64,000 nt of DNA, taken from assembly GCA_902619105.1 (NCBI GenBank), contig CACNCV010000002.1, forward strand, positions 17,092 to 81,091. Reading direction: 5' to 3'. The position numbers and the translations under genes are program-made. This document shows positions 59,551 to 64,000 of this stretch, one piece after another. The notes under the pieces were generated by a model. It made no database searches. It was not told where the DNA came from and saw only the letters and a list, made by a program, of their open reading frames with translations. This DNA is from an uncultured Pelagibacteraceae bacterium. GTDB taxonomy: Bacteria > Pseudomonadota > Alphaproteobacteria > Pelagibacterales > AG-422-B15. Every line of letters begins with the position of its first letter. The first letter of the stretch is position 1.

Positions 59551-60228
59551 ATGAGCAATATATTAATCATAGGAGCTAATCGGGGTCTTGGACTTGAGTT
59601 TGTAAAGCAATATAGCAATACAAACCATAATATTATTGCAACCACTCGAAATAAAGATAGCTCAAAAGAGTTAAGTGAGATTAATAATATCAATATCGCT
59701 GAACTTGATTTAACTTCTGATACAAGCGTAAATAGTTTTGTAACAAGTATCGGGTCTCAAAAAATTGATATACTCATTCACAACGCAGGAGTTTTTAGTG
59801 ATGAGCAATTAAAAGAAGATCTTGATACAGATGCCTGGATGAATGAAATGAGAATTAATGCTGTGATACCCATAATTCTTGCAAGAAAATTAAAAAATAA
59901 CTTAAAAATGGGATCTGATAAAAAAGTTGTTTTTATATCCAGTCAAATGGGAAGCATTGATGACAATTACTCTGGTAGATTTTATTTTTATCGCTCATCA
60001 AAATCAGCTCTTAATTCTGCAGCAAGAAGCTTATCAATAGATTGGAAAGAAGATGGTATATCTGTCCTTATTTTGCACCCAGGATGGGTAAAAACAGATA
60101 TGGGTGGCACAAGTGCCAAATTAGAGATACCTGAGAGCATTACCCAGATGATCAATGTTATAAATGAACTAAATCTTGATAACTCTGGCTCATTTTTAAA
60201 TTATAAAGGAAAAAAACTCGAATGGTAA
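59551..60228 (+). CDS. Short-chain dehydrogenase (CsgA-like SDR)
   Basis: GANRGLG, SSQMGSI, YRSSK and HPGWVKTDMG motifs. Confidence 0.92.
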   Translation: MSNILIIGANRGLGLEFVKQYSNTNHNIIATTRNKDSSKELSEINNINIAELDLTSDTSVNSFVTSIGSQKIDILIHNAGVFSDEQLKEDLDTDAWMNEMRINAVIPIILARKLKNNLKMGSDKKVVFISSQMGSIDDNYSGRFYFYRSSKSALNSAARSLSIDWKEDGISVLILHPGWVKTDMGGTSAKLEIPESITQMINVINELNLDNSGSFLNYKGKKLEW

Positions 60229-60848
60229 AAGATCATACTCACGATAAACCTGATTTCTATAATAATCTTGATAAGACTTATGAAAATATTTGGGATCAAC
60301 TCATAGTTGGTAAATCAAAATCAAAATCTGAATTACATCAAGGGTATATTTCAACATTCAATGACTCATTTCCATCTGTTAGAACAGTTGTCCTCAGGCA
60401 TGTTGATAAGAAAAATAATACCATAAGCTTTCATACGGATATCCGATCCAGTAAAATTGATGAAATAAAAAAAAATAACTCTGTAACCATGCTGTTTTAC
60501 GATCATGGCAAAAAGATACAAATTAAAGTGTCGGGAAAAGCTGAAATTAATCATAAAAACGATAAAGCAAAAATGGCCTGGGATAACTCAAGGTCATTTA
60601 GCAAGAAATGTTATGTTGTTGAAAAGGCACCTGGAACCCCCTCAGATGAACCAACTTCAGGGTACTTACCAGAGCATGAAAACGAACTGCCGGACGATGA
60701 TCTTTTACAAAACGGTTACAACAACTTTACTTTAGTGGAAATTCAAATTCACTCGATTGAGTGGCTTTATTTGCATCGTCAAGGTCATCGCCGAGCATTG
60801 TTTACATCCACAAATGGCAGTTTAAACAAAGAATGGCTAACGCCGTAA
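60222..60848 (+). CDS. Pyridoxamine 5'-phosphate oxidase-like FMN-binding protein
   Basis: PSVRTVVLR, FHTDIRSSK and HRRALF motifs. Confidence 0.85.
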   Translation: MVKDHTHDKPDFYNNLDKTYENIWDQLIVGKSKSKSELHQGYISTFNDSFPSVRTVVLRHVDKKNNTISFHTDIRSSKIDEIKKNNSVTMLFYDHGKKIQIKVSGKAEINHKNDKAKMAWDNSRSFSKKCYVVEKAPGTPSDEPTSGYLPEHENELPDDDLLQNGYNNFTLVEIQIHSIEWLYLHRQGHRRALFTSTNGSLNKEWLTP

Positions 60849-60884: not shown

Positions 60885-61721
60885 TTGAAATATTTGTCAG
60901 AAAATAGATATAAAGGAGAGATAAAAGGTTTGGTATTAGACTGGAGTGGAACTACTGCTGACGCATACGTGATTGCTCCAACTATAGTGTTTGTTGAGGT
61001 TTTTAAGAAACAAAAGGTTGTAATCTCCATGGAAGAGGCAAGAGAACCCATGGGTTTACGAAAAGATTTACATATAAAAGCACTCACAGAGAACGCTGAA
61101 ATAAGAAAGCGCTGGAACATAGTACATGGTAAAGACCCACAAATGTCTGATGTTGAAAATATGTACGCAGATTTTGTTCCACTGCAGCTTAAATGCTTAA
61201 AACAATACTCAAAATTATTACCCGGAACAGCAGAAGTAATTAAACGGGTTCAAAATAGCGGTATAAAAGTTGGTTGCACAACTGGTTTTGTGCGGTCAAT
61301 GGTTAATATTTTAGAGGAAGAATCAGCAAAACAGGGATATGTCCCTGATGCGTCAGTTGCAGGTGATGATGTTAAAAATGGCGTTCGGCCCCTTCCCCAC
61401 ATGTTATATAAAAATTTAGATATAATGAATATAGAATCCATTCAATCAGTTATAAAAGTTGATGATACTGTTTCAGGAATTGGAGAAGCAATTAATGCTG
61501 GTTGTTGGGGTGTTGGTGTAACGCGATATTCGAATTATATGAATATAAATTCATTAGAAGAAGCTGATGAACTGAGTAAAGAAGAAATTGATATGAAACA
61601 AGGATATGCAAAAGATCTGCTTTATAAAGCAGGTGCGCATTACGTAATAGAAACTATTGCAGATATCGAGACCGTTATTGATGATATTAACAAAAGGCTT
61701 TCACGTGGTGAAAGGCCTTAA
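60885..61721 (+). CDS. phnX: Phosphonoacetaldehyde hydrolase (phosphonatase)
   Basis: HAD DWSGT, MGLRK Schiff-base Lys, KVDDT and AGAHYVI motifs; TTG start. Confidence 0.92.
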   Translation: MKYLSENRYKGEIKGLVLDWSGTTADAYVIAPTIVFVEVFKKQKVVISMEEAREPMGLRKDLHIKALTENAEIRKRWNIVHGKDPQMSDVENMYADFVPLQLKCLKQYSKLLPGTAEVIKRVQNSGIKVGCTTGFVRSMVNILEEESAKQGYVPDASVAGDDVKNGVRPLPHMLYKNLDIMNIESIQSVIKVDDTVSGIGEAINAGCWGVGVTRYSNYMNINSLEEADELSKEEIDMKQGYAKDLLYKAGAHYVIETIADIETVIDDINKRLSRGERP

Positions 61722-62233
61722 AAGTTGATTACAAATTTTTCTTGTTCCTCTGTTTCAATTGTACCTGGCCGGCAATTCCTTACATGATTTATGCATTGCT
61801 TTGAATCTAGTCCTAGTGCCTTTAAAATAAGTGAAGCAAACATTCCAGATCTACCTAATCCAGCATAACAATGCAGGTAAACATTTTTATTGAGTTCTAA
61901 CTGAGTAACACAATCTCTGATAATTTGACTATATTCATTTTTTTTAATCTGAGCTGGAATACCATAGTTTTTTATGGGCATGCTGTAGGCCCTAACATTC
62001 TTCTCCTCTAGATCTTTATGGAACTGATTAATTTCAAAATTTCTAATTTCATTAAGTTCTATCAATGAAACAACGAGTGATATATTTAAGTCGATGATAA
62101 TGGTTAAATCTTTTTTATAAGTAAATTTATCAAATCTAGAATTACTGATACCTGGACAACTGGATATAACCAAATTACCAAGATTTTTTTTTGCTTTAAC
62201 AATTTTCGAAAGCTTTATTTTAGTAAAGTTCAA
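61718..62233 (-). CDS. Protein-tyrosine/dual-specificity phosphatase-like protein (CDKN3-type)
   Basis: HCYAGLGRSG P-loop, CPG and RPGTIET motifs; TTG start overlaps the phnZ stop. Confidence 0.82.
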   Translation of the reverse strand: MNFTKIKLSKIVKAKKNLGNLVISSCPGISNSRFDKFTYKKDLTIIIDLNISLVVSLIELNEIRNFEINQFHKDLEEKNVRAYSMPIKNYGIPAQIKKNEYSQIIRDCVTQLELNKNVYLHCYAGLGRSGMFASLILKALGLDSKQCINHVRNCRPGTIETEEQEKFVINF

Positions 62234-62829
62234 ATATAGGACTTTTGAATAAAAGGATGAAAGAATGAAATAGCTTCAGTTTTCTTTCCCCTAATTTTTG
62301 CATTGTCATCATACTTTCGAAGTCTTACTGCATCTTCAAAATATTTATGACTTTCCAGTTTTCGAATAGCATCTTTGTTTAAATATCCGCCTTGAAGTTT
62401 AAAACTTCTTTTGGAGCCATCTGAAAGACCGTCATAATAATCTGATTGAACGGAACATAGATATCTCTTTGCAATAACGTGCATTTTAATTGGGTAAGTA
62501 ACTTCTTCAGGGAAATACTTGGATAAAAAAGATGCAGCAACGTTTTCATGATACTTGTCATTGTTTAAAAAATCATGGCTATTTACATCTTCGCCAGTCA
62601 ACATATGCCCTAAATCGTGAAATAATGAAGCAGTAATAAATTTATCACTTTCATTATTTTCTTTAGCTAAGGTTGCGCACTGAAGAGCATGTTGTAATTG
62701 AGTAATCTCTTCGTCATAAAAACTGCATGAACCTCTTTGATCAATAATTTCACATAAAACATTGGTACGCTCAATAATTGAAGCTGAATTTAATTTATTT
62801 TCTAGAGATTGGATTTTATCTAATTGCAT
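62230..62829 (-). CDS. phnZ: HD-domain di-iron phosphonate oxygenase (PhnZ/TmpB family)
   Basis: YDE..QLQH, HDLGH, HE, HVIAKRYL, S..S...QGG and RLRKYDD motifs. Confidence 0.85.
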   Translation of the reverse strand: MQLDKIQSLENKLNSASIIERTNVLCEIIDQRGSCSFYDEEITQLQHALQCATLAKENNESDKFITASLFHDLGHMLTGEDVNSHDFLNNDKYHENVAASFLSKYFPEEVTYPIKMHVIAKRYLCSVQSDYYDGLSDGSKRSFKLQGGYLNKDAIRKLESHKYFEDAVRLRKYDDNAKIRGKKTEAISFFHPFIQKSYI

Positions 62830-62874
62830 GATTTAAATGATTAATTATATTTTTTTTAATGTCAATAATTTGAG

Positions 62875-62924
62875 CTGTAACATTAGTGTAATAAATTGCA
62901 AAATATCTGTCATAAAAATGCAAC
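62875..62924 (+). promoter_or_regulatory. Tandem Pho boxes (PhoB sites)
   Basis: About 11-bp periodic half-sites ctgtaac, gtgtaat, ttgcaaa, ctgtcat (perfect, 62907-13) and atgcaac, between divergent phnZ and phnC. Confidence 0.75.
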
Positions 62925-62963
62925 TTTGATTTAATTTTTTTGTATTACTTTTCATTCATACTA

Positions 62964-63767
62964 ATGATCAAAGTAGAGAAATTAAATAAGTATTTTGGTG
63001 ACAACCGTGCAGTAAACGATGTCACATTTGAAATTAATAAACCTGAAATGATTGGTATCATTGGCAGATCTGGTGCTGGAAAGTCAACATTACTGAGAAT
63101 AATGAATCGTCTAACCGACGCAACTAGTGGATCTATTTTTATTGAAGGCAGAAATATACTTTCATTAACAAAGAAAGACAAACGAGCATGGCAAAAAGAT
63201 TGTGCCATGATATTTCAGCAATTCAATCTTGTGCCCCGTTTAGATGTTTTAACAAATGTAATTCTTGGAAGATCAAATATTCAAGGTACTTTACGATCAA
63301 GCTTAAAACTTTTCACTAAAGATGAACGCGTTGATGCATTGATGGCTCTGGATAAATTGGGAATGGCTGAAACCGCGCTGCAAAGAGCAGAGACTTTATC
63401 TGGTGGACAGCAACAAAGGGTTGCAATTTGTAGAGCTATGATGCAGCAACCAAAAATGATTTTAGCCGACGAGCCTATTGCATCGCTAGACCCTCTTAAT
63501 GCCCGACTTGTAATGGAATCACTTAGAAATATTCATAGAGAAAAGCAGATTACTGTTCTTGCAAATCTTCATACTCTTGATACCGCTAAAAATTATTGTG
63601 ACAGAGTCATTGGCATGAGACTTGGGGAAATTGTTTTTGATGATGTACCTTCAAGTTTAAAAGATGATGTTGCTAGAGAAATTTATGGCGCTGAAGCTGA
63701 AGAAGCATTTGAACCAACAGTTACTTCAACTTCACTTGGTGACGAACAGTTTGCAGAGGCAGGATAA
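62964..63767 (+). CDS. phnC: Phosphonate ABC transporter ATP-binding protein
   Basis: [25 protein letters not shown] and DEPIASLDP motifs. Confidence 0.95.
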
Positions 63768-63819: not shown

Positions 63820-64000
63820 ATGATTAAAAATTTAGTAAGGTCTATTATTGCTTGTTCATTCCTTTTTGTGTCTGCAAATGCATACGCATGGGATGTATCT
63901 GGCTATAAAGGGCCAACAATGGACTTGAGTAAATATCAACCTGAAATGAGACTTGGATTTTTAGGCGATGAATCAGCTCAAGACATTATTAAGAATAATG
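63820..64000 (+). CDS. phnD: Phosphonate ABC transporter substrate-binding protein (5' partial)
   Basis: SD aaggag, signal peptide and RLGFLGDESAQD; follows phnC; runs off the window. Confidence 0.75.
   Translation, partial: MIKNLVRSIIACSFLFVSANAYAWDVSGYKGPTMDLSKYQPEMRLGFLGDESAQDIIKNN

Follow-up and report, generated by a model that had tools for sequence, protein, structure and literature searches.

What does a protein tyrosine phosphatase (PTP)-like gene do in a phosphonate island of SAR11? The question is raised by a 64,000-nucleotide stretch of DNA from an uncultured Pelagibacteraceae (SAR11) bacterium (GenBank assembly GCA_902619105.1, contig CACNCV010000002.1, positions 17,092 to 81,091 of the forward strand; GC approximately 30%), hereafter the window. 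Here, a PTP-like gene (61718-62233, minus strand; hereafter the PTP) lies directly behind a gene for a PhnZ-family oxygenase (62230-62829, minus strand). The preliminary description of this DNA put the PTP forward as a partner of PhnZ. Our analysis of gene neighbourhoods points elsewhere: the recurrent partner of these PTPs is phosphorus uptake (PhnS2T2U2, PhnCDE), whatever C-P-cleaving enzyme stands nearby, and not PhnZ. We therefore tentatively assign the PTP to clades whose members serve as accessory genes in loci for phosphorus acquisition, an assignment that we hold with less than even confidence. The finding is real and widespread, but less specific than a dedicated PhnZ partner.

The PTP gene encodes 171 amino acids from a TTG codon, the sole usable start, there being no ATG ahead of Met85 in this frame; homologues align from residue 2-3 on, which fits the TTG start. 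The protein exceeded the Pfam cut-offs for PTP-SAK (PF22784, 47.8 bits vs. 27), CDKN3 (PF05706, 24.2 vs. 20.7) and PF00102 (35.4 vs. 20.9), and fell under that for DSPc (PF00782, 31.5 vs. 33.5). Its AlphaFold2 model (pLDDT 94.9, pTM 0.90) gave 277 PDB matches at E<=1e-3 in Foldseek, and the top 50 listed were all PTP-fold; the best was KAP (1fpz, TM 0.80, E 5e-10), and PRLs, DUSP23/VHZ and archaeal PTPs ranked next. Sequence and model together identify a Cys-based PTP superfamily member of the KAP/CDKN3-like dual-specificity phosphatase (DSP) branch. The N-terminus has no long hydrophobic stretch resembling a signal peptide, as judged by eye. The nucleophile loop is intact (H121-C122-Y-A-G-L-G-R128-S129-G; 61847-61873, minus strand): it holds the nucleophile Cys, the phosphate-binding Arg and, directly past the latter, the turnover-aiding Ser129. 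H121, C122, G125, G127 and R128 were invariant in both alignments made (A1 and A2, 46 and 60 sequences). C122 and R128, the loss of which marks a STYX-like pseudophosphatase, are present and invariant in 22 SAR11 copies. Where the family has its general-acid Asp (P-I-x-D, approximately 33 residues ahead of the Cys), the codons of residues 86-89 (ccc ata aaa aac) read P-I-K-N, and the position is taken by Asn89 (aac, 61967-61969, minus strand). The HCxxGxGR loop and the PIKN reading had both been noted in the preliminary description, and both were borne out by the sequence read and the alignment.

The evidence on function comes from the neighbours of PTP relatives. A word-based search with the single protein returned SAR11 copies only; distant relatives were obtained via a profile and an exhaustive search of representative proteins, which gave 3169 at E<=1e-3. 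Outside SAR11, no relative was above approximately 41% identity to the window PTP, and the SAR11 protein cluster comprises 236 member sequences in public metagenomes. Eighty metagenome loci were fetched by PTP similarity alone and their neighbours were inspected afterwards. Linkage to phosphorus acquisition was found in 14/80 loci, vs. 2-5% taken as background, a rough assumption. Identity between any two of the phosphorus-linked PTPs does not exceed 52%, and adjacency to transport genes recurs in approximately 13 lineages (GC 0.30-0.64), often 0-25 bp from a permease gene; in several lineages spanning this GC range, no more than approximately 440 bp separate the PTP from a transporter gene of the PhnS2/PhnU2 type. 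In the L025 group (L025-L030, L080, L083, L089), whose phnS2-phnT2-phnU2 genes all score above cut-off, the PTP follows phnU2 by 0-22 bp in the same orientation, and phnW and a pair of aminophosphonate oxidoreductase and Phn-HD genes lie approximately 5 kb away. Further PhnS2/PhnU2-linked lineages are L054, L108, L046, L058, L067 (GC 0.59, in a PhnA cluster), L073 and L124, the last belonging to a PhnS2T2U2-linked cluster of 175 member sequences (P0177). The PTP of L042 adjoins phnCDE, and that of L049 lies between phnE and phnF-phnG-phnH. In SAR116 (L023, L024), it stands among genes for GDPD, TmpA, TmpB (both Tmp proteins above cut-off), a metallophosphoesterase, a glycosyltransferase, phnCDE, ppx and ppk2. 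In no locus outside SAR11 do the PTP and an HD oxygenase gene adjoin; a PhnZ-family gene lies 3-5.5 kb away in SAR116 and the L025 group, with other genes separating the two, and the PTP-linked clusters of L042, L049, L067, L073 and L124 are without any PhnZ.

Some other features of these neighbourhoods were recorded. The putative aminophosphonate oxidoreductase of L025 (2999-5062; TIGR03329, 572 bits, just under cut-off) adjoins phnW and is divergent from the Phn-HD oxygenase gene; it could be a FAD-dependent alternative to a PhnY*-type hydroxylase. Genes of the agmatinase/arginase family recur near PhnS2T2U2-PTP units (L108, 822-1811; L124, 10537-11517) and near a SAR11-like PTP of the Asn type (L043, 4372-5352). 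In 8/10 multidomain relatives (P0041, P0092, P0148, P0143, P0129, P0133, P0073, P0078) the PTP domain is fused to an ADP-ribosylglycohydrolase (PF03747), which probably explains the name 'ADP-ribosyl-[dinitrogen reductase] hydrolase' carried by stand-alone members in one source.

In the window, the stop codon of phnZ (TGA) and the start codon of the PTP (TTG) share the tetranucleotide TTGA (62230-62233, minus strand), as the preliminary description had stated and as the ORF coordinates and sequence read confirmed. A consensus scan picked out a terminator-like hairpin followed by a T-run (61698-61714, minus strand) directly past the stop codon of the PTP; it falls within the 3' end of phnX (60885-61721, plus strand), which is convergent with the PTP and overlaps it by 4 nt. 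Because of this overlap and this hairpin, the two genes look like a two-gene transcript. A sigma-70-like promoter candidate (TTGACA, 17-nt spacer, AATCAT; 62837-62865, minus strand) lies ahead of phnZ; it is a consensus match only, and such sites are no more numerous in this region than the shuffled expectation.

The upstream gene encodes 199 amino acids from an ATG codon. Its product aligns in sequence with TmpB (6npa, E 5e-31) and PhnZ (4mlm, E 5e-24), and H47, H71-D72, H94, H117 and D174/175 match the conserved H, HD, H, H and D columns of both entries, which we take to be the HD di-iron metal ligands. Glu is present in the column of PhnZ Glu27, and Phe occupies that of Tyr24, with a Tyr one position on; we take these two PhnZ residues to be substrate contacts. 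The scores stayed under the equivalog cut-offs for PhnZ1 (NF052439, 187.8 bits vs. 300), TIGR03276 (177.3 vs. 214.6) and TmpB (NF049941, 153.9 vs. 300). The earlier naming as PhnZ thus stands as to family and metal ligands but not as to the specific enzyme; the protein is a PhnZ-family, mixed-valent di-iron oxygenase, and its substrate assignment stays putative because of these scores. In the described pairs PhnY*/PhnZ, PhnY*/PhnZ1 and TmpA/TmpB, with which it shares the HD di-iron family and all metal ligands, the oxygenase works beside a hydroxylase. By contrast, tblastn gave no TmpA-like (Fe/2-oxoglutarate hydroxylase) or FAD-oxidoreductase match in the window, and no hydroxylase partner was found within 10 kb beyond phnC in a syntenic locus. 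The nearest non-SAR11 relatives of the oxygenase (P0271, P0277; 44-46% identical) keep an overlapping gene for a PhyH-family dioxygenase. On these comparisons the SAR11 protein is an orphan and has not been re-partnered with the PTP; presumably it takes ready-made 1-hydroxy-phosphonates. In L120 (5223-6636) and L121 (5226-6597), the genes of these nearest relatives belong to sets of three, made up of a PhyH dioxygenase, the overlapping HD oxygenase and an alpha/beta hydrolase (Abhydrolase_11).

Another 21 SAR11 genomes, from single cells or metagenomes, carry the same locus (93-100% protein identity). The PTP is intact in 22/22 copies, each with the TTG start, the overlap with phnZ, and invariant N89, C122 and R128. 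The dN/dS ratios were 0.33 for PTP, 0.13 for PhnZ, 0.20 for PhnX and 0.29 for PhnC; divergence among the copies is low, so that these ratios are rough. The PTP is under purifying selection as judged from these codon comparisons, and decay to a pseudogene was rejected. One outcome that the preliminary description had named as fatal to its proposal, a decaying PTP paired with phnZ in this genome only, is contradicted by the 22 intact copies and by the divergent phosphonate-linked relatives. One variant locus (L119, 2036-2231, corresponding to 62173-62233 of the window) keeps an intact PhnZ-like protein 91% identical to that of the window and only the first approximately 60 nt of the PTP gene; the order there is divergent phnC and phnZ, then PNPOx-SDR, and PTP and phnX were lost together in one deletion while phnZ was kept. 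In another (L039, 1-1257, corresponding to 60888-61958), the 3' end of the PTP has 94.8% nucleotide identity to the window, while the adjoining phnX, followed by phnW, is only 71% identical; this drop therefore marks a recombination boundary at the PTP/phnX junction.

The preliminary description had suggested a neighbourhood check of whether the Asn at the acid position is specific to the PhnZ context; that check went against such a specificity. Among 165 aligned family domains, this column holds Asp in 138 and Asn in 19, so that Asn recurs in about a tenth of the family. PTPs of the Asn type were found in contexts without phosphorus genes (L037, L038, L085, L118, L122), and the phosphonate-linked relatives outside SAR11 are all of the Asp type. 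In a rough neighbour-joining tree without support values, the window PTP groups with SAR11-like Asn proteins: that of L040 (45% identical, reading E-I-K-N), which follows a membrane protein with a sub-threshold PHO4 match, and that of L041/L043 (38% identical, reading A-I-I-N), which is divergent from phoR-pstSCA. Neither has a PhnZ nearby. The acidic residues of the loop around Asn89 are lost as well. From these alignments, the D-to-N change belongs to a lineage in which the whole acid loop is drifting, and it predates or is independent of the PhnZ pairing; a PhnZ-specific adaptation was rejected. The PHO4-like label of the membrane proteins beside the PTPs of L040 and L025 was also set aside as weak context (Pfam, only 19 bits, under threshold). 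Asn-type PTPs of three divergent lineages are convergent with a gene for a TauE/SafE anion exporter (L040, 1903-2658; L043, 464-1276; L122, 1149-1898), which is followed by typA in L040 and L043.

What the PTP does in such loci can be proposed from its active site. Our favoured proposal, offered tentatively and at less than even odds, is a cytoplasmic accessory hydrolase of phosphorus starvation which Asn89 limits to substrates with good leaving groups. Co-transcribed and translationally coupled with an orphan PhnZ-family oxygenase, opposite the phnCDE/C-P lyase genes, it would free phosphate from P-O compounds that are out of reach of the C-P enzymes. Cys122 would attack a phosphoryl group held by the P-loop with R128, giving a phosphocysteine; water would then hydrolyse this intermediate with the help of Ser129, and Asn89 would stand in for the general acid. 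Substrates needing no protonation of the leaving group are expected because Asn89 replaces the acid and the loop's acidic residues are lost, and phosphoanhydrides (PPi, polyP, nucleotides) or acyl phosphates would be favoured. Real turnover is argued for by the retained Ser129.

Comparison with known systems gives precedents for parts of this proposal. KAP/CDKN3 (human; 1fpz, 1fq1) is the best structural and second-best sequence-profile match and is of similar length; it shares the N-terminal strand with a ..PG motif, the position of the P-I-x-D loop, the HCxxGxGR loop and the C-terminal R-x-G-x-I-x-T-x-x-Q. Identity is only 18-20%, however; KAP keeps the Asp, whereas the SAR11 protein has Asn89 and lies in a phosphonate island, and the KAP substrate, pThr160 of CDK2, has no counterpart in bacteria. 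The minimal single-domain DSP fold is shared with SsoPTP (2i6i), Tk-PTP (5z5a), DUSP23/VHZ (4erc) and entry 25xa, and profile E-values against archaeal and atypical small PTPs ranged from 1e-20 to 4e-31. Unlike the window PTP, the aligned 25xa and ShufPTP keep the general-acid Asp, as do SsoPTP, Tk-PTP and VHZ; we know of no archaeal or atypical small PTP that is genomically tied to phosphorus uptake. UgpQ-type hydrolases, which end phosphorus-uptake ABC operons, resemble the PhnS2T2U2 clusters in that a small cytoplasmic hydrolase gene follows the permease; their fold and chemistry are unrelated, and this is an analogy only. The CX5R loop without a catalytic Asp is found in PFA-DSP/Siw14 inositol-pyrophosphatases and the RNA 5'-triphosphatases BVP/Mce1 (1yn9). 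BVP stood at rank 47 among the fold matches; the likeness is one of working principle and of fold level only, between different subfamilies. PTP-superfamily enzymes naturally without a general acid are an established group, acting on phosphoanhydrides whose leaving group needs no protonation (PMC9038691).

Several observations weigh against the accessory hydrolase. The catalytic activity of the family is putative throughout; the SAR11 substrate may moreover differ from that of most phosphorus-linked relatives, which keep the Asp. Phosphorus linkage is missing from the closest group of the Asp type (P0157, 41% identity), and several Asn-type groups sit in contexts without phosphorus genes; the association therefore belongs to particular clades and not to the whole family. 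The tree that places the SAR11 protein is a rough one, and since L040 and L041/L043 share TauE and TypA on their other side, the pst or PHO4-like link of these relatives may be an effect of island position. The control region is a further point. The preliminary description placed the gene pair under Pho boxes and divergent from phnCD. The spacer between phnZ and phnC, the gene for the ATPase of the phosphonate ABC transporter (62940-63767, plus strand; TIGR02315, 321 bits vs. 266), does hold two Pho-box-like direct-repeat sites (62875-62892, 0 mismatches; 62907-62924, 1 mismatch), two of the three such matches in the whole window (1.17 expected). However, both read on the plus strand, towards phnC and not towards phnZ-PTP, so Pho control of the gene pair itself stays putative; a scan of eight other regions showed no Pho box ahead of their PTP genes. 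The predicted ORF of phnC begins at TTG 62940; the conserved N-terminus begins at ATG 62964, probably the true start, which gives a spacer of approximately 134 bp.

A second explanation, possible though we consider it unlikely, is that the PTP is a regulatory switch with little net catalysis. Its P-loop or a long-lived phosphocysteine, the latter favoured by the loss of Asp, would sense phosphate or a phospho-donor, and it would gate the neighbouring ABC or Pit transporters or reset PhoR/PhoB, in the manner of PRL on CNNM or PhoU on Pst. The best fold matches include PRL phosphatases, both in complexes of PRL (PTP4A) with CNNM Mg transporters (5k22, 9mex) and in an entry with a trapped PRL phosphocysteine, so that there is a precedent for transporter regulation through a long-lived phosphocysteine. 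Transporter genes are also the most consistent neighbours, and not any single catabolic enzyme: the PTP of the L025 group is flanked on its other side by a convergent Pit-like transporter gene and a TIGR00153 family gene, which we take to be PhoU-like (an unconfirmed label), and that of L041 is divergent from phoR. Asn89 and the degenerating loops of L040 and L041 would fit a lost need for acid catalysis. On the other hand, PRLs have Ala after the P-loop Arg, which slows turnover, and a C-terminal prenylation motif, whereas the SAR11 protein keeps Ser129 and is without such a tail; contact with a transporter is only putative. The full catalytic set, Asp included, is kept by most of the transporter-linked relatives, and among the multidomain relatives the PTP domain was seen fused to ADP-ribosylglycohydrolase or TPR but in no case to a transporter or regulator domain.

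Thirdly, and with a rather low probability, the PTP could guard against arsenic, handling arsenate or organoarsenical analogues that enter via the phosphate and phosphonate transporters, through thiol-dependent reduction at the CX5R loop or through hydrolysis of arseno- or phospho-adducts. No general acid is needed by CX5R reductases such as Acr2, and ars operons contain a distantly related subfamily of the Asp type from the same Pfam family. As:P is high where the SAR11 1a.3 ecotype, including HTCC7211, lives, and phnD transcripts of HTCC7211 rose approximately 2-fold with dimethylarsenate (PMC6426599). However, the ars-linked proteins share only 19-22% identity with the window PTP and are without its I-E-T-x-E-Q motif, SAR11 already has an LMW-PTP-type ArsC and an aquaporin, and no ars gene was found near any of the phosphorus-linked PTPs examined. 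The ars-operon subfamily is an observation in its own right: it was present in 5/6 plasmid loci inspected (L125, 7007-7510; L127, 4480-4983; L128, 4498-4998; L129, 4444-4953; L130, 4453-4941), with the P-loop HCKGGSGRTG, between arsH (or acr3) and a gene for ArsJ-associated GAPDH, arsO or a second arsC. The gene orders were arsC-arsR-arsC-acr3-arsH-[PTP]-gapdh-arsJ, or the same ending in -arsO-arsN1. No paper naming this subfamily was found in the literature searched.

It is improbable that the PTP is a generic housekeeping or signalling phosphatase outside phosphorus scavenging which hitch-hikes in variable genomic islands. The family is indeed very large, with many members in unrelated contexts, and SAR11 phosphorus genes lie in variable regions, as the deletion and the recombination boundary at this locus illustrate; against this stands the transport-gene adjacency in so many lineages of such low mutual identity and different GC. 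Least probable of all, and very unlikely, is a dedicated catalytic or substrate-trapping partner of PhnZ in a new phosphonate step (on phosphonate esters or acyl-/oxo-phosphonates): PTP active sites do bind phosphonates as phosphate mimics and the coupling overlap is kept in 22 SAR11 copies, but the pairing is confined to SAR11, phnZ outlived the PTP in L119, the Asn has a history of its own and the nearest relatives of the oxygenase pair with a PhyH dioxygenase.

The rest of the locus is in keeping with phosphonate use. The phnX gene encodes a phosphonoacetaldehyde hydrolase (TIGR01422, 281.8 bits vs. 220). Directly upstream of it, on the same strand, lie two overlapping genes for an SDR (59551-60228, plus strand) and a PNPOx-like protein (60222-60848, plus strand). 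No phnW was found in the window (tblastn); phosphonoacetaldehyde might come from the SDR, or from the PNPOx-like protein acting as an amine oxidase, instead of from PhnW. Beyond phnC, the 5' part of phnD, for the substrate-binding protein, was located by tblastn with SAR116 PhnD (63821-64000, plus strand) and runs past the window end. In the syntenic locus L011, phnC is followed by phnD, phnE, phnE, an MFS gene, phnF and phnGHI. The locus is a phosphonate island of the HTCC7211 type; that of HTCC7211 is reported to hold phnCDEE2, phnGHIJKLMN and phnZX (PMC3448164).

The fold and the family are known. The tie to uptake loci and the SAR11 Asn lineage are undescribed as far as the literature searched goes: no paper was found that describes a tie of a PTP to phosphonate or phosphate uptake loci, not even in a review on the degradation of phosphonates from 2023 or in the study of AepXVW, and the statement of the preliminary description that it knew of no PTP-like partner of PhnZ holds to that extent. 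Marine alphaproteobacteria, SAR11 among them, contribute a major term to the phosphorus cycle of the ocean and to aerobic methane production through their use of phosphonates, and the 2-AEP importer AepXVW is reported to be one of the phosphorus-uptake systems with the highest expression at sea (PMC8316502). That a conserved gene stands in or beside PhnS2T2U2, PhnCDE and C-P lyase, TmpAB, PhnA and PhnZ/PhnX clusters means that the accepted pathway maps miss a component. A role as scavenging hydrolase, transporter regulator or arsenic guard would change how phn gene counts in ocean surveys are read. High-GC relatives (GC 0.44-0.64), of a likely culturable kind, carry the same arrangement, which makes the question directly testable. 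It is conceivable, although we regard it as doubtful, that three divergent clades of the KAP-like family are a dedicated and hitherto overlooked component of bacterial phosphonate and phosphate uptake, acting as a phosphocysteine or phosphate-sensing switch on the ABC importers, a counterpart in bacteria of PRL-CNNM, or as an enzyme that clears phosphate- or arsenate-type analogues brought in along with phosphonates. If so, the Asn form of SAR11 would be a mechanistically distinct variant of this component in one of the most abundant organisms of the ocean.

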